DNA of 64,000 nucleotides from an uncultured Candidatus Binatia bacterium. GTDB taxonomy: Bacteria; Desulfobacterota; Binatia; UBA9968; JAJDTQ01. How positions within the stretch are numbered: the stretch's first letter is position 1; each line of letters begins with the position of its first letter. The notes below the pieces were generated by a model that saw only the letters and a program-made list of their open reading frames with translations, had not been told where the DNA came from and searched no databases. The position numbers were made by a program, and so were the translations under genes. The DNA is taken from NCBI GenBank assembly GCA_965215605.1, contig OZ244070.1:3168001-3232000 (forward strand), written 5' to 3'. Below, in pieces: positions 44,857 to 64,000 of this stretch.

Positions 44857-44933
44857 GGGCCCATAGCTCAGTTGGTTAGAGCCACCGGCTCATAACCGGT
44901 AGGTCCCTGGTTCGAGTCCAGGTGGGCCCACCA
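44857..44933 (+). tRNA. tRNA with CAT anticodon, most likely tRNA-Ile2 (lysidine-modified)
   Basis: GGGCCCA/TGGGCCC acceptor stem, D arm AGCTCAGTTGGTTAGAGC, anticodon arm ACCGG-CTCATAA-CCGGT, GGTTCGAGTCC, encoded CCA; position after rpoD typical of ileX. Confidence 0.95.
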
Positions 44934-48154: not shown

Positions 48155-49864
48155 TCAGAAGAGAAAATACCGCTGCGCCATGGGCACGGTCCGCGCCGGT
48201 TCGCACGTCAACAGCTCGCCGTCGGCGCGTACCTCGTAGGTTTCGGGGTCCACCTCCATGCGCAGGGTGGCGCCGTTGTGGATCAAGTCTTCCTTGCAGA
48301 GGTCCCGTGTTCGCTTCACTGGAAGGAGTGGCCTCCGGAGTTGCAGCACGCCGGCGAGATCGGCGTCGAGCGCCGCGGCGCTCACGAAGGTGACAGTGTT
48401 CTCGCGCCGCGAGCCGCCGAAGGCGCCGAACATCGGCCGGTAGTGCACCGGCTGTGGGGTCGGGATGGAGGCGTTGGGGTCGCCCATGGGCGCGGCGACG
48501 ATGACGCCGCCCTTGAGGATGACGTCCGGCTTGACGCCGAAGAAGGCCGGTGACCACAGCACCAGGTCAGCGAGCTTCCCCGGTTCCACCGATCCGACGT
48601 ATTCCGATATGCCGTGGGTGATGGCCGGGTTGATGGTGTACTTGGCCAGGTAACGCTTTGCCCGGACATTGTCGTTGTCCGCCGTCTCCGCGGGGAGCCG
48701 GCCGCGCTGGCGCTTCATCTTGTCGGCGGTCTGCCACGTGCGGATGATGACCTCGCCCACGCGGCCCATGGCCTGGCTGTCGGACGCCATCATGCTGAAC
48801 GCGCCCAGGTCGTGCAGGATGTCCTCGGCCGCCATGGTCTCTTTGCGGATGCGGCTTTCCGCGAAGGCCACGTCCTCGGCGATGGCCGGGTCCAGGTGAT
48901 GGCAGCACATGAGCATGTCGAGGTGCTCGTCCACGGTGTTGACGGTGAAGGGCCGCGTCGGGTTGGTGGAGGAGGGCAGCACGTGGGAAAGGCCGCAGAG
49001 CTTGATGATGTCGGGCGCATGGCCGCCGCCGGCGCCCTCGGTGTGGAATGTGTGGATGGTGCGGCCCTTGAACGCCCGCAGGGTGTCCTCCACGAAGCCC
49101 GACTCGTTCAGCGTGTCCGTGTGGATGAGCACCTGCACGTCGTAGGCGTCGCCCACGGACAGGCATGTGTCGATGGCGGCCGGTGTGGTGCCCCAGTCCT
49201 CGTGCAGCTTCAGGCCGCAGGCTCCCGCCCGGACCTGCTCCTCCAGGGCCGCGGGCCGGCTGGCGTTGCCCTTGCCGAAGAAGCCCAGGTTCACCGGGAA
49301 CGCCTCCGCCGCCTGGAGCATGCGGCCCAAGTGCCAGGGTCCCGGCGTGCAAGTGGTGGCCTTGGTGCCCGCCGCCGGTCCCGTGCCGCCGCCGAGCATG
49401 GTGGTGACGCCGCTGTAGAGTGCGTCTTCCACTTGTTGGGGACAGATGAAGTGGATGTGGACGTCGAGCCCGCCCGCGGTGACGATCTTGCCCTCGCCGG
49501 CGATGACCTCGGTGCCCGGCCCGATGATGATGTCCACCGCCGGTTGCGTGTCCGGATTGCCGGCTTTGCCGATGGCGTGGATACGGCCGTCCCGGATGCC
49601 GATGTCCGCCTTGACGATGCCCCAGTGGTCCAGCACCAGGGCGTTGGTGATGACCGTGTCGATCGCGCCTTCCGCCCGGGTGGCCTGGCTCTGACCCATG
49701 CCGTCGCGGATGGTCTTGCCGCCGCCGAACTTCACCTCGTCGCCGTAGACCGTCCGGTCCTCCTCCACCTCGATAATGAGCTCGGTGTCCGCCAGCCGGA
49801 TCCGGTCCCCGACCGTTGGTCCGAACATGGCCGCGTAGGCCGCACGCTCGATCTTTCTTGCCAT
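48155..49864 (-). CDS. ureC: Urease subunit alpha
   Basis: [57 protein letters not shown]. Confidence 0.99.
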
Positions 49865-49932
49865 GGGTCGCCTTTCTTGCTTCGCTCCGCATCGCCGCAC
49901 GCGCGGTGGCATGGGCGGGACGGTCGGAGCGT

Positions 49933-50241
49933 TCAGTCCAACGGTCCGTCGACCTTGCCCTGGAACCCCACGACCGCGCGTTTGCCGGCGTAGCCCACCA
50001 GGGTGACGGTGCGGGTCTGTCCGGGTTCAAATCGCACCGCGGTGCCGGACGGGATGTCGAGCCGGAAGCCCCGGGCCTTGTCGCGGTCGAACACGAGGGC
50101 CTCGTTGGTCTCGTGGAAGTGGTAGTGGGAACCCACCTGCACCGGGCGGTCGCCGCTGTTGGCCACGTCCAGCGTTACCGTCTCGCGCCCGGCGTTGAGG
50201 GTGATGGGTCCCCCCTTGGTGAGAATCTCTCCCGGTATCAT
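49933..50241 (-). CDS. ureB: Urease subunit beta
   Basis: [32 protein letters not shown]. Confidence 0.99.
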
Positions 50242-50274: not shown

Positions 50275-50402
50275 CTAGTGTGGTGTCTGGTTAATTCGGG
50301 TCATAATCTGCGGAGGATTTTTTGTTGTCGGCAAGGCGCGATGACGAGCAGTGGCGGGTACCACGCGAGGAAGAGTAACGCAGCCGACGGCGAAAAAGAC
50401 CC
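50275..50402. repeat. Palindromic MITE-like element: left end and central hairpin present, right arm missing
   Basis: Starts CTAGTGTGGTGTCT as in other copies; 15-bp stem 50318-50332 with 50383-50397 (three G.T pairs); no intact mirror of 50275-50312 follows. Confidence 0.6.
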
Positions 50403-50697
50403 ATATATTGTGTACTGATCTCACCTGATTCTCACCCATTCCCTCGGGTAGCGGACAAGCGCTGTCATGTCAACTCTCGTCACGACAGCCTTGCAATAAC
50501 CCTATATATTCCAGTCCGTTATGGTGGATTCCGTATAACTCAACCTCCTGCGCCATTCGGTCACGTCGCGCCAGCCGATGACATGCCACACTCCACTGTG
50601 CGATTCCAGTGGGTTGCGTTTCGATTACGGTCCTGATAGCATTTTCTCCGGTTTCGGGGTTTCGTTTTGAGCTCCCGAGGCCGGAGGAAATCCCCCC

Positions 50698-51879
50698 ATG
50701 CCCGGACGCCAACCCGTCAAACTCACCAAGCGCGCCGTCGATGCGCTCAGCGTGGAATCGGGCGACACCGTGGTCTGGGACCGGGACCTGCCGGGCTTCG
50801 GCATTCGGGTGTATGCGTCGGGCCGCAAGGTCTGGTGCGTGCAGACCCGGGGACCGGCCGGGGGGCCGAAGCGCTTCGCGCTCGGCCGCTACGGCAATAT
50901 CACTCCAGACGACGCCCGCCGCAAGGCGGCGCTCGCCATCGACCGCATCAAGCAGGGATTGGAGCCCGACCCTCCGCCCGCGGCGACCGAGCCCACGGTG
51001 GCGGAGCTTGCCGAGCGCTACATGGAGGCCCATGTGCGGGTGAACTGCCGGCCCGCGACGGTGGAGGCCTTCGGGCGCATCCTGCGCCTGTACATCGTGC
51101 CGGAGCTGGGCCATCTGCAGCTCTCGGAGGTGGATCGCCCGCAAGTCTCGGAGTTCCATCACAAGCTCCGAAAGAAGCCCTACCAGGCGAATGCGGGGGT
51201 GGGGGTGCTGGCGCACATGTTCCGGCTTGCGGAAGCCTGGGGGATGACGCCGCCGCGGCGCAATCCGTGCCGGTCGGTGCGGCGCTACAGGGAGACGCGC
51301 CGCGAGCGGTTCCTGACGCCCGAGGAGTACCGCGAGTTGGGCCGGGTGCTCGACGAGGCGGAAGCCGACGGCACCGTGTTCCCCCCGGCGATCCCCGCGC
51401 TCCGCCTGTTGCTGCTCACGGGCTGCCGCCGGAACGAGATCCTGACGCTCAGGTGGGACGACGTGGACCACACGGCGGGGGAGCTTCGGCTGAGGGACGG
51501 CAAGACGGGATGGCGCAGCGTGCCGCTCACGCCGGCGGTGGAGGCGGTGCTCGCGGGGATACCGCGGACGAAGGGCAACCCGTGGGTGATCGCGGGGCGG
51601 AAGCCCGGAACGCGTCTCACCAACCTCGATGCGATCTGGATGAGGCTCCGCAGGCGGGCGGGGCTCGACGACGTGCGGCTCCACGACTGCCGTCATTCGT
51701 ACGCGTCGCGGGCGCTGGCGCTGGGCGAGGGGCTTTCGATGATCGGCGCGCTGCTGGGTCACGCGAAGGTGGCGACGACGGCGCGCTATGCGCACTTGGC
51801 GCGGGACACGGAGAAGGCTTCGGCCGCCCGGGTCGGCGGCAGCATAGGCGCGGACATCCTGCCGCCGGGCGCGGTCTGA
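50698..51879 (+). CDS. Tyrosine recombinase/integrase with N-terminal arm-binding (DUF4102-like) domain, copy 1
   Basis: WDRDLPGFGIRV; TGCRRNE (R), DGKTG (K), HDCRH, LGH, TARY catalytic set. Confidence 0.96.
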   Translation: MPGRQPVKLTKRAVDALSVESGDTVVWDRDLPGFGIRVYASGRKVWCVQTRGPAGGPKRFALGRYGNITPDDARRKAALAIDRIKQGLEPDPPPAATEPTVAELAERYMEAHVRVNCRPATVEAFGRILRLYIVPELGHLQLSEVDRPQVSEFHHKLRKKPYQANAGVGVLAHMFRLAEAWGMTPPRRNPCRSVRRYRETRRERFLTPEEYRELGRVLDEAEADGTVFPPAIPALRLLLLTGCRRNEILTLRWDDVDHTAGELRLRDGKTGWRSVPLTPAVEAVLAGIPRTKGNPWVIAGRKPGTRLTNLDAIWMRLRRRAGLDDVRLHDCRHSYASRALALGEGLSMIGALLGHAKVATTARYAHLARDTEKASAARVGGSIGADILPPGAV

Positions 51880-51900
51880 GCCGGAAGGAGGCATCCTCAA

Positions 51901-53115
51901 ATGGCGAAACTCACCACGGCGACGATTTCGAAGCGCACGGTGGAAGCGCTGGTGGTGAAGAGGGACACGGTCTACTGGGACTCGGAGCTTTCGGGCTTCG
52001 GGGTTCGCGCCTATCCGTCGGGGAGCAAGTACTACGTGGTGCAGACCCGGGCCAACGGCAAGGCGGCAAAGCGGGTGACGGTGGGCCGGCACGGAATCGT
52101 GACGGCGGAGGAGGCGCGCAGGCGGGCGGCGCTGATCATCGCGCGCATCAAGGCGGGAGAGGAGCCGCTGGCGGAACCCGCGGCGGCCCTGGCCGAGGGT
52201 CCCACGGTGGGGGAGCTTGCGCGCCGGTGGCTCGAAGAGCACGTGGCGGTGCGGTGCAAGCCCAGGACGGTGGAGATGTACACGCTGATCGTCCGCAAGC
52301 ACCTGCTGCCCGCGCTCGGCAGGGCACCGGCGCTGGCCGTGGATCACAAGCGGGTGACCGAACTGCACCATTCGATGCGCGGGACGCCGTCGATGGCCAA
52401 CCGGACGGTGGAGGCGCTGTCGCGCATCTGGAACTCTGCGGAGGACCGGGGGGAGTTGCCGGAGGCGAGCAACCCGTGCCGGGTCGTGGTGAAGAACCGC
52501 GAGCGCGGGCGCGAGCGGTTCCTGAGCGAGGAGGAGTTCCGCCGGCTGGGGCGGGCGCTGGCGGAGGCGGAGACCGGGAATGGCATGTCGGTGCACGCGG
52601 TGGCGGCGATCCGGCTGTTGCTGCTCACGGGGTTGAGGCGGAACGAGGTTCTGGTGCTCCGCTGGCGGGACGTGGACCTCGATGCGCGCGAGATCAAGCT
52701 CGAAGACTCCAAGACCGGAGCGCGCGTGGCGCCGCTCTCGCCGGAGGCGGCCCGGGTGCTCGCCGTCATCCCGCGCGTGGAGGGGAACCCGCACGTGATC
52801 CCCGGGAAGAAGGCGGGCACGCACCTGCGCAACCTCAACGACCCCTGGGACCGGATCCGCAAGCGCGCGATGCTGGAGGACGTGCGGCTCCACGACTGCC
52901 GCCACTCGTTCGCGTCCAGGGCGCTGGCGCTCGGCGAAGGGCTGACCATGATCGGGAAGCTCCTGGGTCACACCAAGGTGGAGACCACCGCGCGGTACGC
53001 GCATCTGGCGCGGGAGTCGGTGCGCGACTCCGCCATCCGCGTATCCGACAGCATCGCCGCCGACATCCTGAAGGGATACGGCGGGGACCAAGCTCGGGCC
53101 AGGACGGCGACCTGA
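51901..53115 (+). CDS. Tyrosine recombinase/integrase with arm-binding domain, copy 2
   Basis: WDSELSGFGVR; TGLRRNE, DSKTG, HDCRH, LGH, TARY; AAGGAGG RBS. Confidence 0.96.
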   Translation: MAKLTTATISKRTVEALVVKRDTVYWDSELSGFGVRAYPSGSKYYVVQTRANGKAAKRVTVGRHGIVTAEEARRRAALIIARIKAGEEPLAEPAAALAEGPTVGELARRWLEEHVAVRCKPRTVEMYTLIVRKHLLPALGRAPALAVDHKRVTELHHSMRGTPSMANRTVEALSRIWNSAEDRGELPEASNPCRVVVKNRERGRERFLSEEEFRRLGRALAEAETGNGMSVHAVAAIRLLLLTGLRRNEVLVLRWRDVDLDAREIKLEDSKTGARVAPLSPEAARVLAVIPRVEGNPHVIPGKKAGTHLRNLNDPWDRIRKRAMLEDVRLHDCRHSFASRALALGEGLTMIGKLLGHTKVETTARYAHLARESVRDSAIRVSDSIAADILKGYGGDQARARTAT

Positions 53116-53402: not shown

Positions 53403-53684
53403 ATGAGCACACGACGACGGTTCAGCGGAGACTTCAAGGCGAAGGTAGCGCTGGAGGCGCTGCGAGGGGACAAGACGATCCAGGAGATTGCGGCGCGGCA
53501 CAAGGTCCACCCGAACCAGGTGAGCACGTGGAAGCAGCGTGCGGTGGAGGGGATGAAGGAGGTGTTCTCGAAGGGAGCCGAGGGGGCACGAGGAGACCAC
53601 GAGGGGGAGGTCCGGGACCTGCACGCGAAGATCGGGGAGCTGACGGTGGAGCGGGATTTTTTGGCCAAAGGGCTCAAGTGGTGA
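53403..53684 (+). CDS. IS3 transposase OrfA (HTH)
   Basis: RRRFSGDFKAKVALEA...VHPNQVSTWK...IGELTVERDFL. Confidence 0.93.
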   Translation: MSTRRRFSGDFKAKVALEALRGDKTIQEIAARHKVHPNQVSTWKQRAVEGMKEVFSKGAEGARGDHEGEVRDLHAKIGELTVERDFLAKGLKW

Positions 53685-54610
53685 GCCGGGAGAAGCGCCG
53701 GGGGATGATCGCGCCCGGCCATCCCAAGCTCAGCTTGAGCCGTCAATGCCATTTGCTTCGAGTGAGTCGATCCTCCGTGTACCACCGGCCCAAGGGCGAG
53801 AGCGCGGAGAATCTGGCGTTGATGCGCCGGATCGACAAGCTGTTTCTGGAGTACCCCTTCTACGGCAGCCGCTAGATGGTCCGCCATCTGTGGCGGGAGC
53901 GAGTCCGAGTGGGTCGTCACCGGGTGCGGCGTCTGATGCGCCTGATGGGGCTCCAGGCCATCTATCAGGCGCCGCGCACCACCCGACCGCACCCCGAGCA
54001 CCGGGTCTATCCCTATCTGCTCAAGGGGGTCGCCATCGAACGGCCCCATCACGCGTGGACCTCCGACATCACCTATGTCCCTGTCCAGAGTGGCTTCCTG
54101 TACCTGGTGGCGGTGATGGACTGGGCCACCCGCCGGGTGCTCTCCTGGAGGCTGTCGAACACCCTCGATGCCCGCTTCTGTGTCGAGGCCCTCTCAGAGG
54201 CTCTGGAACGCTACGGCCCTCCCGAGATCTTCAACACCGACCAGGGCAGCCAGTTCACCAGCCTGGAGTTCACCTCCGTGCTCAAGGACGCCGGCGTCGC
54301 CATCTCCATGGACGGCAGGGGCCGATGCATGGACAACATCTTCATCGAGCGCCTGTGGCGCTCCCTCAAGTACGAGGCCGTCTACCTGCACGAGCTGACC
54401 GACGGCTTCGCCGCCCAAAGGGTCATCGCCCGATGGATGGAGTTCTACAACACCCAAAGGCCTCACACCGCCCTCAATGGCTCGACCCCGGCCGAGGCCT
54501 ACGACCATGGAATGCTGATGGAGATGCAGGCTGAGCCCCTCCGCTCTCCTGCCCCTCCACCCGCTCAACCGGAACGGGAAGACGTGTTAAACAGGACCCT
54601 GGCGGCATGA
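53681..54610 (+). pseudogene. IS3 transposase OrfB (DDE) with internal amber stop
   Basis: FYGSR*MV with TAG at 53873-53875; WTSDITY, FNTDQGSQF, DNIFIERLWRSLKYE downstream. Confidence 0.9.
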
Positions 54611-54843
54611 TCCACTACCCGGAATACACCTTATTTTCGCCGCCCACCTGTCCAACGAAGTAGGACCACCTCAATTGAGAAAATCCTGTTTGAGTTCGGC
54701 ATATGTGGTGTATAGTACGTAACGTACTTTCCATCACGCATGACGCTGATAGTGCCCAGTCGCAAGAAACAAAATCCAAGAAGCGCGGGGGCGGCACCGC
54801 GACGTTCATCGGGTCGATGTCACGCCCCGTCGGAGTGTCTTCC

Positions 54844-56556
54844 ATGTGGCAGGTATCGCTGCCCGGCCTATGTCCAGTGACTGATGCTGTTGCCATCCTT
54901 GGCGCTGACGGCATTGAGCACCGCGGCGCGGTCTATACAAAGCGGGAGGTGGTTGAGTTCATTCTTGATCTTTCCGGCTATACCTCCGACCGTCCGCTTT
55001 ACAGTTACCGCCTTCTGGAGCCGTCCTTCGGCGACGGTGATTTCTTGCAGATAGCAATCGAGCGTCTGCTCGAAAGCTGGCACCTAAGCAAGTCATGCGG
55101 CAATCCTGTTGCTGCGCTCGCGCAGTGCATTCGCGGCGTTGAGTTACACCCATCCTCTTTCTGGAGCACGCGCGGCAAGGTCATCAAATGGCTCAAGGAC
55201 GCAGGCATGACGGTCGAGGGGGCAGAACGTCTTGCGGATGTATGGCTTATGCAGGGCGATTTCTTGCTCACCGAACTGGCCAACTCCTTTGATTTTGTTG
55301 TCGGTAATCCGCCATATGTGCGGCAGGAACTGATTCCCGATTCCTTGATCGCGGAATACCGCACGCGCTACCGCACAGTGTTCGATCGCGCCGACATCTA
55401 TATTCCCTTTATCGAACGCTCGCTGAACCTGCTGAGTGAGGACGGCACCCTCGGCTTTATCTGCGCAGACCGCTGGATGAAGAACCGCTATGGCGGTCCG
55501 TTGCGGCAGATGGTGGCTGAAGGATATCACCTGAAGGCCTATATCGATATGACCGACACGCCGGCCTTCCATGCCGATGTGATCGCCTACCCGGCGATCA
55601 CCATCATTACAAAGGGAAACCCTTGCAGGACGCGGATCGCCCATCGCCCCGCCATTGACAAAATAGTGCTGGATTCCCTTGCCCGGGAAATATTGGCCGA
55701 CAGTCCGCCCGCACCTGACGGTTCGGTCAAGGAAATAGCAGATGTTGCCGTCGGTCAGCAGCCCTGGATTCTGGAATCCTCAGATCAGCTCAAGCTCATT
55801 CGCCGGTTGGAACACGATTTTCCGGGCATCGAAGAAGCCGGGTGCAAGGTCGGGATCGGCGTGGCGACCGGTGCGGACAAAGCCTTTATAGGCCCTTTCA
55901 ACGAACTCGACGTGGAGGAGGATCGCAAGCTGCCGCTCGCCATGACCCGCGATATCGACAGCGGTGAAGTCAAATGGCGTGGCCTTGGGGTTGTTAATCC
56001 GTTCACCGATGGCGGCGGTCTTGTCGATCTGAACGACTATCCCCGCCTGAAGAGTTATTTTGAACAGCGACGCGGCCAGATTGCAAAAAGGCACGTCGCA
56101 CAGAAGGTGCCAGCGAACTGGTACCGGACTATCGACCGAATTTATCCTGCGCTTGCCACCGAACCGAAGCTGCTCATCCCGGACATCAAGGGCGAAGCCC
56201 ATATCGTCTACGAAGACGGGCACCTGTATCCGCACCACAATCTCTACTTCATCCTTTCCGACGAGTGGGACTTGAGGGCGCTACGCGCCGTGCTGCGCTC
56301 CGGTATCGCCAAGCTCTTCGTTTCGATCTACGCGACCCGCATGCGAGGCGGTTATCTACGCTTTCAAGCGCAGTATCTCCGGCGCATTCGACTGCCGCGC
56401 TGGAAGGACATTTCCGCCGTCCTCAAAAACGACCTGATCAAGGCCGCTACGTGCAACAATACTGGCGCCTGTAACAGGGCTGTTTCACAGATCTACGGTT
56501 TTACACAAGAAGAACGTGCCGCCATCGGCGGGAACGGTGAACGGGAGGCCTTTTGA
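54844..56556 (+). CDS. Type II N6-adenine DNA methyltransferase, PaeR7I/XhoI-like (Eco57I/TaqI-like fold)
   Basis: [15 protein letters not shown] motif I, VGNPPYVR motif IV, TaqI-C-like tail; GGAG RBS. Confidence 0.93.
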
Positions 56557-57290
56557 CAATAGATCTTGCCGATTACGAACAGAGGGCCCGGCAGGCCATC
56601 CGAGCGTTCTGGGGCAACCGCGAGAAGGCACGCCAGAAGCAGGCCGATTCCGGCAGGGCCGATCAAGGCGAACGCGCCGGCGTCACGGCCGGCAAGAACA
56701 TGGATGGGTTTATTGCCCTGGTTATCGACATCGTTCGGGCCAACGGACTGGATCATGCTGACATTCATCAGCGGCGCCGTGTACTGACATTGCCCGGCTA
56801 TTTTCGGCCCACGAAGTTGTGGGACCTTCTGGTTATCAATGAAGGCCGCCTGGTCGCTGCACTCGAATTTAAGAGCCAGGTGGGCCCATCGTTCGGTAAC
56901 AATTTCAACAACCGTTCCGAAGAAGCCATCGGCACTGCGCTTGATCTTTGGACGGCCTACAGGGAAGGGGCATTTGGCGAACAGGCACGTCCTTTCGTCG
57001 GCTGGTTGATGTTGCTTGAAGACGCGCCAGCATCGCGGACTCCCGTCGGGGATGCGTCTCCCCATTTCCCAGTATTCAAGGAGTTTCAGGGTGCCTCGTA
57101 TGCCGAGCGCTACAATATTCTCTGCCGTAAGCTAGTGCGGGAACGGCTTTATACGACGGCATCGGTCCTGACATCGCCGCGGTCGGCTTCGACAGACGGC
57201 GACTATTTCGAAATGAGCGATATGACTGGGCTGCGCGCATTTGTTACCGAACTTGCCGGACATGTGGCCGCAGAGGCGGCAAGATCATGA
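56553..57290 (+). CDS. PaeR7I/XhoI-family type II restriction endonuclease (predicted CTCGAG)
   Basis: [52 protein letters not shown]; coupled to MTase stop. Confidence 0.92.
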
Positions 57291-59484: not shown

Positions 59485-60210
59485 TCTGCCTTCGCCGTTT
59501 TGGGCATCACTACCGCATCCACAGGAATGTTGACCGTCCTGCCAGTCCCTTCCTGCTCGACTGGCACGTTGAGACGGAACGAATACGTCCCCGGCTCCAA
59601 CTCGTCATATTTCGTGCCCTCGCCTGCGGATAAGTTTTCGTACTCCAGAACTGTCAACCATTCGCTGATCGCCGTGAGCTGACGCTATTCCTGTCGGTTA
59701 CGGATGAGCGGATTGGCGACGGCCCCGCATAGGCGATCGGCCACGATGGTCGCGGCCCGGTACAGCTCCGGTTCGGACGGATCGTCTCCGCGCTCCAACC
59801 AGACGAAGACATCCGGGTCGGCCATCCGCTCGATGATCTGCCCAATCTTCTTGAGGTCTCTGTCCAGTTCCTGCTGGGACATTCGCGGCGGGAGCCTGTT
59901 CTCCTTATCCATCGCCTTGACCAGGTTCCCGGAGACGCCAGCAAGACCGATCAGCCGGTCCATGGCCAGAGGCGGACAAGTGGACATCCGCAGTGACGGC
60001 AACACCGAGGGCTTCGCCTTCAGGAGCTCCACCCCCCACATCTGTCAGGTTCTTCGTCGCTATAAGGGTCGCCTCGACATCCATTGTGGTCTGCACCCGC
60101 GTCGTCCGGTAGGCCTCCGGCGCAAATCGCATGAACCAGTCGTTGTACATGTCCACCGAATCTGCGATGTCCTGTTTCCACCGGTCGGGTTTGTCCCTGT
60201 TGACTGCCAT
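59485..60210 (-). pseudogene. XamI-family type II restriction endonuclease pseudogene
   Basis: MAVNRDKPDRWKQDIADSVDMYNDWFMRFAP...RMSTCPPLA.DRL...ADRLCGAVANPLIRN; frameshift in G6 run near 60035, TAG at 59685-59687, C-terminal part lost near 59485. Confidence 0.82.
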
Positions 60211-62532: not shown

Positions 62533-64000
62533 ATGAACCACATCGCTCCCCTCCACGAGCCGGCGATCCGCCCGATCGCGCTCGACCGGCTGTCCGTCGC
62601 GCCGGAGAACGTGCGCAAGACGCCGCCCGCTACGGCCGCCGAGGCCGAGTTGAAGGCTTCCATCGCAGCCCATGGGCTGCTGGAGAACCTGATCGTCCGA
62701 AGCGAAGGCCCCGGCGGCGGCTATGCCGTGGTCGCGGGCGGCCGCCGCCTCGCGGCGCTCAAGAAGCTCGCCGCGGACGGCGTGCTCGATGCCGCCCATC
62801 CGGTGCCGTGCCTGGTCGTCGACGACAATGCCTCGTCCAGTGAACTGTCGCTCGCCGAGAACGTCATTCGCATCGCCATGCATCCCGCGGACCAGGTGAC
62901 CGCGTTCACGAAGCTCGCCGAATCCGGCGTCACGGTGGCGGCCATCGCCGCGCGGTTCGGCATCTCCGAGCCCTTGGTCGAACAGCGCCTGCGGCTCGGC
63001 AACGCGGCGCCCGAACTGGTCGACGCATACCGGGCCGACGAGATCGACCTGGAGACGCTCAAGGCCTTCGCGGTCACGACCGATCACGGCCGCCAGATGG
63101 CTGTCTGGGAGCAGTTGGCGAACCAGGGCTACCGTCCGACCTCCTGGGAGGTGAAACGCCTGCTGACCGAGGAGCGGACTCCGGCGAACTCCGCCATGGC
63201 CCGTTTCGTCGGCATCAACGCCTACGAGGCCGCGGGCGGACCGGTGTTGCGGGACCTCTTCGCCGACGAGGAAGAGAGCGGAATCTGGCTGGAGGACCCG
63301 GTGCTCCTGCAGAAACTCGCCATGGACAAGCTGGGCGAGGCCGTGAAGGACCTCCAGACCCGCTGGCGCTGGGCAACGGCCGTGCCGGAGGTCGACTGGA
63401 CCTCGATGGCGCGTTACGGGCGCATCCAACCGGAGCCCGCGGCGCCGACCGACGAGGAGACGGCCGAGCTCGATCGTCTGCGCACCCGCGAGGATGAGCT
63501 CTGCAATCTCGACGAAGACGAGTGGACCGAAACGCTCGGAGAGGAGGCCTGCGCCATCGAGACCCGGACAGGCGAGATCAGCGCGGCGATCGAGGCCCGC
63601 GAGACCTACCGGGCGGAGGACTACGCGGTCGCCGGAGCCATCGCCACCATCGCATGGAACGGCGAGCTTCAGGTCATCGGGGGCCTGGTCCGTCCCGAGG
63701 ACATGCCGAAGCCGGCCGATTCCGGCGCGGGCCCTGACGCTGACGCCGGTGATGGCGACAACGCCACTGGGTCCGTCCGGTTTCAGGGAACCGCAATCTC
63801 TGCGCCCATGGCCTCGCCTCCCGATCCGCAGGCCGAGGCGCGCAAGGAAGCCGGGGTCGGGATCGGCCTTGCCGACGATCTCCGCTCGATCCGCACGGCA
63901 CTGGTCAAGGCTCAACTCGGGAACGACTTCGCGGCCGCCTTCGACCTCATGCTGTTCCAGCTCGGCCGCGCCGTGTTCACCCGCGGCTACCGGGACCATG
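62533..64000 (+). CDS. Long ParB/RepB/Spo0J-family protein (partial, runs off window; absent from ORF track)
   Basis: Manual translation MNHIAPLHEPAIRPIALDRL...ENVRKT...LKASIAAHGLLENLIV...VAGGRRLAAL...SLAENVIR..MHPADQ; GGAGG RBS. Confidence 0.92.
   Translation, partial: MNHIAPLHEPAIRPIALDRLSVAPENVRKTPPATAAEAELKASIAAHGLLENLIVRSEGPGGGYAVVAGGRRLAALKKLAADGVLDAAHPVPCLVVDDNASSSELSLAENVIRIAMHPADQVTAFTKLAESGVTVAAIAARFGISEPLVEQRLRLGNAAPELVDAYRADEIDLETLKAFAVTTDHGRQMAVWEQLANQGYRPTSWEVKRLLTEERTPANSAMARFVGINAYEAAGGPVLRDLFADEEESGIWLEDPVLLQKLAMDKLGEAVKDLQTRWRWATAVPEVDWTSMARYGRIQPEPAAPTDEETAELDRLRTREDELCNLDEDEWTETLGEEACAIETRTGEISAAIEARETYRAEDYAVAGAIATIAWNGELQVIGGLVRPEDMPKPADSGAGPDADAGDGDNATGSVRFQGTAISAPMASPPDPQAEARKEAGVGIGLADDLRSIRTALVKAQLGNDFAAAFDLMLFQLGRAVFTRGYRDH

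Follow-up and report, generated by a model that had tools for sequence, protein, structure and literature searches.

Organization of the interrupted urease locus

The 64,000-nucleotide window analysed here (C1:3168001-3232000 of genome G000, an uncultured Candidatus Binatia bacterium) contains the left end of a genomic island, termed island 1, which splits a small palindromic repeat lying between the urease genes ureB and ureA and carries two adjacent tyrosine integrase genes, int1 and int2, near its left junction. Other genomes of the genus are designated G0xx and fetched loci L0xx. Sequencing runs containing the junction are sponge metagenomes, and near-identical public records are sponge-associated metagenome-assembled genomes (MAGs).

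The chromosomal gene to the left of the insertion is ureB, encoding the urease beta subunit (49933-50241, minus strand; Pfam Urease_beta, E = 1.8e-45). It shares the minus strand with ureC, ureE, ureF, and ureG in the window, and ureA, the usual upstream partner of ureB, was not found upstream of it. The sole Urease_gamma match in the genome, ureA, occupies C1:3267309-3267605 on the same strand as ureB (minus), 49 kb away. The left end of the repeat lies 33 bp beyond the ureB start. The only tRNA gene in the window, tRNA-Met (44857-44933), is located 5.4 kb from the junction and outside the element, in agreement with an earlier first-pass annotation, which had seen no tRNA-end duplication.

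The left part of the split repeat, window 50275-50402, opens with CTAGTGTGGTGTCT at position 50275. Its outer left arm (50275-50313), a terminal inverted repeat (TIR) of the complete 165-bp element, is the complement of a displaced right arm, with positions 50277-50313 complementary to C1:3267261-3267297 at 37 of 37 nucleotides. The arm leads into a conserved core of about 94 bp (50309-50402, plus strand), whose end at 50402 forms the chromosomal (B) side of the left attachment site, attL. The 15-bp inner stem described in the first-pass annotation (50318-50332 / 50383-50397) exists within this core, but a manual reading resolves it into 12 Watson-Crick and three G-T pairs rather than 15 perfect pairs. 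The palindrome breaks at 50402/50403, reading ...GAAAAAGACCC before the break and ATATATTGTG after it, and the sequence from 50403 matches the expected right arm at 18 of 37 positions; the repeat, the break, and this match count were all reproduced from the earlier description, in a register starting at 50403. The missing 37-nt right arm, GCAGATTATGACCCGAATTAACCAGACACCACACTTG, is located at C1:3267263-3267299, preceded by ...CAGAAAAGACCC and abutting the stop codon of ureA, 48.9 kb away. Its position bears out the earlier proposal that the junction is a hybrid attL within the repeat and that the missing arm would be found beside ureA.

The two junctions delimit island 1 as a segment of 48,860 bp (C1:3218403-3267262), with a right boundary at the would-be window coordinate 99262. 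Both attL and the right attachment site, attR, contain the 9-bp direct repeat AAAAGACCC (50394-50402 in the window, plus strand), the presumed crossover (overlap) region, which is placed at the internal loop that separates the inner stem of the repeat hairpin from the outer one. The attL site reads ...GCGAAAAAGACCC followed by ATATAT, and attR reads ...GCAGAAAAGACCC followed by GCAGAT. The island-side arm of attL (P' arm) and the int1 leader extend over 50403-50697 (plus strand) and include, across 17 aligned attL regions, the conserved blocks TAGCGGACAAGCG and the hairpin CATGTCAA...CACGACAG. A copy of the motif GATTACGG lies at 50623-50630 and shows conservation in the 17 aligned leaders. 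This motif occurs 57 times in 4.06 Mb, corresponding to 0.004 expected per 300 bp, yet it is present once in each of the four 300-bp segments at the ends of the two islands of this genome (island 2 is described below), with a constant orientation relative to the island, making it a candidate arm-type integrase site.

Assembled contigs from other records cross the junction at 50402/50403, which is not the assembly chimera that the first-pass annotation had named as a possible artefact. Short-read contigs X19 record 16 (spanning 50346-51200) and X20 record 26 (spanning 50346-50473) bridge it with 0 differences each, although both may derive from the source sample of the window assembly and are then not independent of it. 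Contig X1 record 4, from a sponge metagenome of another study, crosses a near-identical junction over 50372-50472 with 7 differences and 3 gaps. In the two best-holding runs, summed depth over the repeat reaches thousands, compared with single to double digits in the flanks, as expected for a repeated sequence.

Related genomes reveal the same site in other states. A search of the genus with the ureB flank gave strong matches in 5 of 28 genomes, three short matches (E ~1e-4) being disregarded. In the sister genome G011, whose ureB is 99% identical, ureB is followed by an intact 165-bp repeat and then by ureA, without the island, which is the empty site that the earlier description had called for. 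In G003, G024, and G019, ureB and ureA are neighbours with no repeat between them. Three states of the urease locus are thus represented, namely one without either insertion, one with the repeat alone, and one with both repeat and island. In G000 the insertion parts ureA from ureBCEFG by 49 kb, and urease expression may be affected.

Two further observations concern the urease genes themselves. Any remaining transcription of ureB and the genes downstream of it could start, for instance, from a promoter reading out of the repeat or the island end. An Rfam match to 5_ureB_sRNA (window 49423-49712, plus strand; 117.6 bits, E = 8.6e-31) lies antisense within the urease alpha-subunit gene (48155-49912, minus strand); it probably reflects conservation of the coding sequence and not a demonstrated antisense RNA in this host.

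Structure, copies, and probable insertion sequence partner of the repeat

The repeat is a transposable element of the miniature inverted-repeat type (MITE): it is small and non-coding, has TIRs and insertion sequence (IS)-like termini, forms a stable hairpin, and is multicopy and polymorphic. Folded as single-stranded DNA, an intact copy reaches -69 kcal/mol compared with -23 ± 3 kcal/mol for 200 shuffled sequences (z = -15), the predicted structure pairing 39 bp in an outer stem and 15 bp in an inner one, with a small internal loop between them. Rfam searches of the split copy and four intact copies returned no family, giving only chance-level snoRNA matches (E = 0.008 and E = 0.36).

Genome G000 contains 14 core-bearing copies, comprising eight with both arms, one with a non-complementary left arm, three truncated copies, and the two split by islands; the eight complete copies display the mirrored right arm that the first-pass annotation expected of intact repeats. 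The five longest core matches are 95.7-96.8% identical, and shorter or partial ones go down to 93%. Within the arms, the outer 13 nt are conserved, while the next ~20 nt vary from copy to copy yet stay self-complementary, so that the arms are diverse between copies while the core remains more than 93% conserved. Across the genus, MITE matches are found in 26 of 28 genomes, with at least 22 matches in 23 genomes, one or two in three, and none in two; one genome carries dozens of matches at 97-99% identity. Presence at the urease site is polymorphic, the MITE occurring there in G000 and G011 and being absent from G003, G024, and G019.

The arm termini connect the MITE with an IS. A 1,159-bp IS630-like element (C1:3383740-3384898; L181:40-1198) encodes a 360-aa transposase with DDE_3 and helix-turn-helix (HTH) domains, the former being a mark of IS630-type transposases, and ~24 nt at its right end are identical to the MITE arm terminus. 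On the basis of these shared ends, the IS is likely the autonomous partner of the MITE. At least two further copies are suggested near C1:1259691-1260849 and C1:2216154-2217449 by BLAST matches of the first 24 nt. MITE copies are flanked by an invariant TA just outside the GTGT.../...ACAC ends, the next base outward being variable; these flanks fit a TA duplication, but the MITE-free site of G003 differs by 3 bp from the predicted pre-insertion sequence.

In G000 the terminus TAGTGTSSTGTC is found at 116 places, some of them in palindromes of 42-65 bp that have no core. Examples with the same 13-nt termini are located at C1:1203184-1203225, 3379868-3379925, and 306525-306589, and such palindromes make the 94-bp core look like a separate module placed in the loop of an older hairpin element. 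Within the cores themselves, GC-rich hairpins of ~20-25 bp (GGGGCGACC...GGTCGCCCC; CCCCGGGTCAAG..CCCGGGG) occur in several species (L033, L034, L036, L040, L066, and L180), forming a third layer of nested repeats.

Recurrence of the junction

A second island in the same genome is inserted in the same manner. Island 2 spans 84,864 bp (C1:823472-908335), and its junction MITE (C1:908336-908463), in reverse orientation, is split at the same base, reading ...AAAAAAGACCC up to the break and ATATATATCACC beyond it. Its right arm is located at C1:823435-823471, and the two arms match each other as well as an intact copy at C1:2246674, belonging to a different arm subfamily from the MITE of island 1. 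The ends of island 2 have the 6-bp sequence AGACCC in common, compared with 9 bp in island 1. The integrase pairs of the two islands are 92% identical at the nucleotide level, about 30 kb of backbone is 89-97% identical, and the last ~350 bp are 88% identical.

Int1 relatives (E <= 1e-40) occur in 21 of 28 genus genomes, and full-length copies with at least 89% identity are present in 11 genomes, with up to five in one genome (G020). Loci were treated as assessable when Int1 identity was at least 89% and at least 1.5 kb of upstream sequence was available, which gave 21 loci. At 19 of these, from 10 species, the MITE left arm and core lie upstream of int1 and end in ...AAAGACC[C/A] immediately followed by [A/G/T]TATAT, with identical orientation throughout. 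The chromosomal flanks differ among the 17 loci where a flank is seen, L064 and L067 providing no flank data, and the identical junction stands at many independent sites. Locus L066 has a 2.2-kb insertion between the junction and int1, and L178 has ~250 extra bases in the same interval. The first-pass annotation had anticipated both the same repeat with the same crossover base at homologous tandem-integrase loci and the use of a multicopy hairpin repeat as chromosomal attachment site (attB), providing many landing sites. The second of these is borne out by the same junction standing among different flanks, whereas the first holds for the 19 close loci and fails for 18 more distant upstream regions, where no MITE was found. 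Its expectation that homologous elements would not sit at tRNA genes also agrees with the data, as no tRNA was found within 3 kb in the 60 related loci scanned.

The opposite ends are equally uniform. In a survey of four complete genomes (a fifth, G017, having no match to the query), 16 of 16 attR-type ends read ...CAAYGCRGAAAAGACC[C/A] followed by GCARAT, with the right arm and a unique flank beyond. Reading of the sequences showed mutually complementary attL and attR arms for at least three islands, L056/L146 and L038/L141 in G018 and L055/L140 in G020. The C/A variant at the core end and a G variant six bases in recur at both ends of the same island in L056/L146 of G018 and in the G020 pairs, as would be expected if this segment were the overlap region. 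A different arrangement is present in G020, where an attL at C1:1764679 (L039) and an attR at C1:493719 (L152) have complementary arms 1.27 Mb apart, in a geometry unfit for simple insertion; it suggests a chromosomal inversion between two element copies.

The paired integrases

The upstream gene int1 (50698-51879, plus strand) encodes a 393-aa tyrosine integrase with Pfam matches to Phage_integrase (2.7e-19) and Arm-DNA-bind_3 (5.4e-13), comprising SAM-like core-binding and catalytic domains. The downstream paralogue int2 (51901-53115, plus strand) encodes 404 aa with the same domain set (Phage_integrase, 1.5e-22; Arm-DNA-bind_3, 3.1e-11). Both genes are intact and begin 296 bp inside attL. 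Their products are 55% identical over 383 residues by BLASTP, and alignment shows that both retain the motifs TG(C/L)RRNE, (G/S)KTG, HDCRHS, LLGH, and TTARYAH, which we take to correspond to the catalytic R, K, H-x-x-R, H/W, and Y. Arm-DNA-bind_3 (PF13356) is presumably the same domain as DUF4102, and judged by domain content both proteins classify as IntSXT/P4-type integrases, with a DUF4102 arm domain and a catalytic domain. The NCBIfam XerC/XerD models score 50-60 bits on Int1 and Int2 against cut-offs of ~330, and the integrase_gron model, with a cut-off of 265, gives 43 and 50.9 bits, placing neither protein among integron-type integrases.

The pair is conserved in order. Among 78 related public loci, all those of sufficient length have the second integrase behind the first, except that L104 and L107 lack a partner and L105 is a fusion. 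A FastTree phylogeny of 60 upstream and 60 downstream integrases, from the 60 full pairs drawn from these loci, resolves into two clades separated by one change with a support of 100, and the pairwise identities of Int1 and Int2 co-vary with r = 0.95 over 1,770 comparisons. Both integrases would be catalytic, and the chances that they act as one heteromeric enzyme appear about even.

Several MAGs of sponge-associated Alphaproteobacteria carry Int1 at 80-83% and Int2 at 74-82% identity (L069, L073, L074, and L076-L081). These belong to a different phylum from the host of the window, which points to recent transfer of the integrase module across phyla.

Targets of related integrase clades

Targeting of the MITE is a property of one clade, that with Int1 identity of at least 89%. 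The 18 examined upstream regions of more distant genus pairs (Int1 identity of 56-82%) yielded no MITE. In the clade at 81-82%, the element adjoins an SRAP (YedK-like) gene at the 5' end of that gene, supported by a Pfam match of 1.4e-70 at L058 and by the same first residues, with no Pfam match, at L176. At three loci of the 57-59% clade (L172, L173, and L175) the element abuts the 5' ends of PIN-domain genes. Three loci of the 60% clade (L167-L169) adjoin 5'-truncated DUF4102 integrase genes, and several alphaproteobacterial loci (L084, L088) adjoin the 3' part of an integrase gene. In the 67% clade, L162 and L163 abut a coding frame whose stop codon falls at the junction.

Counted together, the targets of the ordered pair comprise the MITE core, SRAP and PIN (vapC-like) genes at their 5' ends, and the integrase genes of other elements, with PIN genes occupied at several loci; the MITE and the integrase genes are themselves mobile DNA. 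Between the MITE and SRAP clades, divergence is greatest in the core-binding region of Int2 (72-73% identity), that of Int1 being 81-82% identical. A GACGGCGAAA-like stretch common to the SRAP 5' region and the MITE core was judged a coincidence, being in opposite orientation relative to the integrase genes.

Contents of islands 1 and 2

Behind int2, island 1 contains IS fragments encoding an N-terminally truncated rve integrase-core transposase (53403-54610, plus strand; Pfam rve 8.8e-24, with rve_3 for 53876-54610), a sign of decay of the island. These are followed by a type II restriction-modification pair (54703-57290, plus strand), consisting of an Eco57I/TaqI-like methyltransferase and an XhoI-family endonuclease (Pfam Eco57I 3.8e-25, TaqI_C, XhoI 4.3e-100). 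Pfam scans of the 48 called open reading frames (ORFs) of the island identify further cargo from 57401 to the window edge at 64000, including ParB-like proteins, RadC, a strawberry-notch-type helicase, a single-stranded DNA-binding protein (SSB), AbiEii, and ankyrin and Sel1 repeat proteins. A 118-aa ORF in this region (59688-60041, minus strand) matches positions 9-122 of the 256-position XamI endonuclease model and looks like a truncated restriction remnant. Beyond the window, adjacent Sel1-repeat and ankyrin-repeat proteins of island 1 lie between IS fragments (L003:12434-14394); eukaryote-like repeat proteins of this kind are typical of sponge symbionts.

The similarity between the two islands ends at island coordinate ~2845 and restarts at ~10263. 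Island 2 carries genes for TraL, E, C, W, U, N, H, and G, a TrbI-like protein, and a TrwC relaxase, corresponding to an F-type type IV secretion system, whereas neither type IV secretion genes nor a relaxase were found among the 48 called ORFs of island 1. The element family thus qualifies as an integrative and conjugative element (ICE) through island 2, and the copy in the window, which has lost its transfer module, is at best a mobilisable or decayed derivative. Island 2 also contains three consecutive nested tyrosine recombinase genes resembling a recombinase-in-trio (RIT) arrangement (L005:17403-19591 and L006:569-1579; C1:~859-862 kb), an additional DUF4102 integrase (L006:3538-4656), and defence-type and toxin-antitoxin cargo comprising a DncV-like nucleotidyltransferase, an Xre/MbcA-RES pair, and an AbiEi/AbiEii pair (L008:4541-5917; L007:14305-15201; L005:12057-13875).

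Proposed mechanism and alternative explanations

The combined observations favour, with a probability of roughly 85%, the interpretation that this element family uses the MITE as its attachment site in site-specific recombination. Island 1 would have entered one 165-bp MITE copy between ureB and ureA by such recombination. The family to which it belongs consists of conjugative elements, occurs in a genus of sponge-associated bacteria, and has island 2 as its complete form. The element would circularise to form its own attachment site, attP, with a core (A)AAAGACC[C/A] between arms that each contain one GATTACGG. The recombination partner of this attP would be the identical short core of the MITE, which lies toward the 3' side where an internal loop separates the inner stem from the outer one, and strand exchange would take place within the 6-9 bp of identity. 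Where and in which orientation the element inserts would be set by the asymmetric core of the near-palindromic MITE. The recombinase would consist of Int1 and Int2, adjacent ancient paralogues that most likely act together. As a genome has tens of MITE copies or more, which an IS630-like element would mobilise, many neutral intergenic landing sites would be available, several copies of the family could sit in one genome, and no target gene would have to be rebuilt. Present-day copies may still excise.

Several results weigh against this interpretation. At two of the 21 assessable loci, L054 and L179, no MITE was found within 1.5-2 kb upstream. Over its upstream 2 kb, L179 agrees at 98% identity with the sequence upstream of another integrase pair, suggesting later insertion or replacement, and L054 has no such explanation. 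Two G020 loci with Int1 of at least 90% identity and two contig-edge loci are outside the set of 21, as are some partial G004 copies, and the genomes are kin and not independent samples of the family, though their flanks show distinct insertion sites. An alignment of the in-silico attP with the MITE scores no better than shuffled sequences (20 versus 18 ± 2.2), the identity of attP and attB amounts to only 6-9 bp, and inspection of the half-sites on either side of the core revealed no obvious inverted symmetry. A degenerate motif search of the G000 assembly gave no attP junction, compared with two attL, two attR, and six unoccupied attB-like sites. The excised circle was not found in public reads, which were searched as Logan contigs and in that form cannot reveal rare forms. 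With IS fragments behind int2 and no relaxase or type IV secretion genes, island 1 may no longer move. Loose ends at 50402 continuing with GCAGATTATG... match other intact MITE copies as well and are uninformative on excision. The possibility that attP descended from a MITE was ruled out, given that the two have only 9 + 8 bp in common, namely AAAAGACCC and the adjacent CAACGCAG, and an alignment score within the range of shuffles.

The arms flank the island as inverted repeats, and MITEs are generally deletion derivatives of larger elements, as stated in the available part of PMC3184786, so island and arms could together form one large TIR transposon, with the 165-bp repeats as its internal-deletion derivatives. 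This explanation is very unlikely, because the arms of the two islands differ (GTGTGGTGTCTGG... in island 1, GTGTCCTGTCCGG... in island 2) whereas identity between the island ends is 88% and 92%, and the arms of each island match a different free MITE subfamily. A complete MITE also stands at the urease site of G011 without the island, the arm terminus belongs to the 1.16-kb DDE_3 IS and not to the island, and the islands carry tyrosine integrases and are delimited by a 6-9 bp direct repeat inside the MITE, with no target duplication marking their limits beyond the arms. RecA-dependent homologous recombination between element-borne and chromosomal MITE copies, which are abundant and 90-99% alike, is the most improbable of the explanations weighed, even with the signs of rearrangement between element copies in G020. 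It predicts a whole MITE at each end, whereas a single split MITE is seen with 6-9 bp in common; the break falls on the same base in 19 attL and 16 attR sites, and AAAAGACCC and CAACGCAG are all that the in-silico attP has in common with the MITE.

Other alternatives retain the MITE as target and differ in how it is recognised. The MITE could be recombined as a folded hairpin, either as a cruciform or as single-stranded DNA, in the manner of integron attC sites, with the asymmetric bulge marking strand and position. Its exceptional stability (-69 kcal/mol, z = -15), the mapping of the crossover to the unpaired internal loop between stems, the constant side and orientation of insertion, and the entry of a conjugative element into cells as a single strand, as the transfer genes of island 2 would imply, all agree with this idea, which is nevertheless improbable. 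The lambda/P4-style arm-binding domains and the candidate arm site point to a classical double-stranded intasome, the integron-integrase models score 43-51 bits against a cut-off of 265, sister clades integrate at ordinary gene ends without evident hairpins, and both island ends are clean reciprocal products. It is also possible, if doubtful, that a single integrase performs integration into the MITE, the other serving a second attachment site, dimer resolution, or regulation and excision control. Two distinct half-sites are not evident in the sequence, the core-binding region of Int2 has diverged more (72-73%) than that of Int1 (81-82%), so that one protein could read the core, and most characterised IntSXT/P4-type elements use one integrase (see also PMC8138268). 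Against this stand the arm-binding, core-binding, and catalytic domains with catalytic-type motifs kept in both proteins, the order and tight spacing retained in all 60 full pairs, their co-divergence (r = 0.95), and the rarity of exceptions, with only L104 and L107 lacking a downstream partner among the loci that could be judged and L105 being a fusion.

Beyond site-specific integration into the MITE, a broader interpretation can be put forward tentatively. The paired integrases could constitute a two-subunit, XerC/D-like recombinase equipped with arm-binding domains, in which split recognition eases retargeting. The elements would then represent a class of conjugative elements not described so far, whose spread across phyla in sponge microbiomes relies on insertion into repeated or mobile DNA in place of a unique housekeeping gene, with the MITE perhaps recognised as a bulged hairpin.

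Implications

ICEs and genomic islands are usually mapped, and sought by software, at tRNA genes or at a few conserved genes, and one site per genome limits the coexistence of related elements. Use of a transposing, multicopy MITE as attB provides many neutral landing sites, plasmid sites included, and up to five related elements can thereby share a genome and serve there as substrates of large rearrangements. It also couples the spread of one mobile element to that of another, and islands inserted in this way are hidden from tRNA-based island finders. The conserved two-integrase module with its clade-specific targets can serve as a natural model of how specificity changes in tyrosine integrases, and the paired enzymes are a possible source of integrases for multicopy sites or of re-targetable integrases.

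Comparison with known systems

The first-pass annotation knew of no description of such targeting for this integrase type, and the literature search is in line with this. No ICE or genomic island integrating into a MITE or a repetitive extragenic palindromic (REP) sequence, and no description of a tandem DUF4102 integrase system, was found in the literature searched, subscription journals being outside its coverage. One preprint (10.64898/2026.10.15.759431) names REP and attB, but the portion available concerns RNA-guided silencing and not integration.

In the accessible text of PMC8138268, the IntSXT subgroup is defined by DUF4102 and its members insert beside conserved genes. SXT/R391 elements, targeting prfC, and P4-like islands, targeting tRNA genes, resemble the present family in their terminal integrase, DUF4102 domain, short direct repeats, specificity of site and orientation, and conjugative complete form. 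The IntSXT/P4-type elements differ in using conserved genes as targets and one integrase, in contrast to the non-coding multicopy MITE, two paired integrases, and up to five copies per genome (G020) observed here.

Targeting of repeats is known for other element types. IS1397 and IS621 insert into REP or bacterial interspersed mosaic element (BIME) palindromes, according to the part of PMC3184786 available. They likewise target a multicopy intergenic palindrome, but they are 1-2 kb IS with DDE or IS110-type transposases, compared with a 49-85 kb element that uses tyrosine integrases and attP/attB sites. Filamentous prophages of Neisseria (Nf/MDA) integrate into dRS3 repeats by a phage-encoded transposase/recombinase, as described in the accessible part of PMC1797815. 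They too are large transferred elements with site-specific insertion into a multicopy repeat, differing as phages with a 20-bp target from a conjugative element with paired tyrosine integrases and a 165-bp MITE. The Nf/MDA enzyme is of the Piv/IS110 type.

Pairing of recombinases also has precedents. XerC/XerD at dif, and the IMEX elements exploiting it, likewise involve two paralogous tyrosine recombinases, a pairing that conservation and co-divergence suggest for Int1 and Int2; XerC and XerD differ in having no arm-binding domains, being host housekeeping genes, and acting at a single chromosomal site. We know of no DUF4102 arm domain, conjugation module, or MITE target in Tn554, RIT, GInt, or strand-biased circularising (SE) elements. 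Adjacent tyrosine recombinase genes on one element are reported for Tn554 (TnpA/TnpB), RIT, GInts, and SEs in the available portions of PMC5385486, PMC9345347, and PMC10214605. As characterised in those portions, RIT and GInt elements have three recombinases and SEs have four shared coding sequences, two of them recombinases, compared with the pair present here. Recombination of integron attC with attI likewise uses an imperfect hairpin target with a crossover beside unpaired bases. Integrons differ in their integrase type, and the present family is distinguished from them by arm-binding domains, reciprocal double-stranded junctions, and an element of 49-85 kb.

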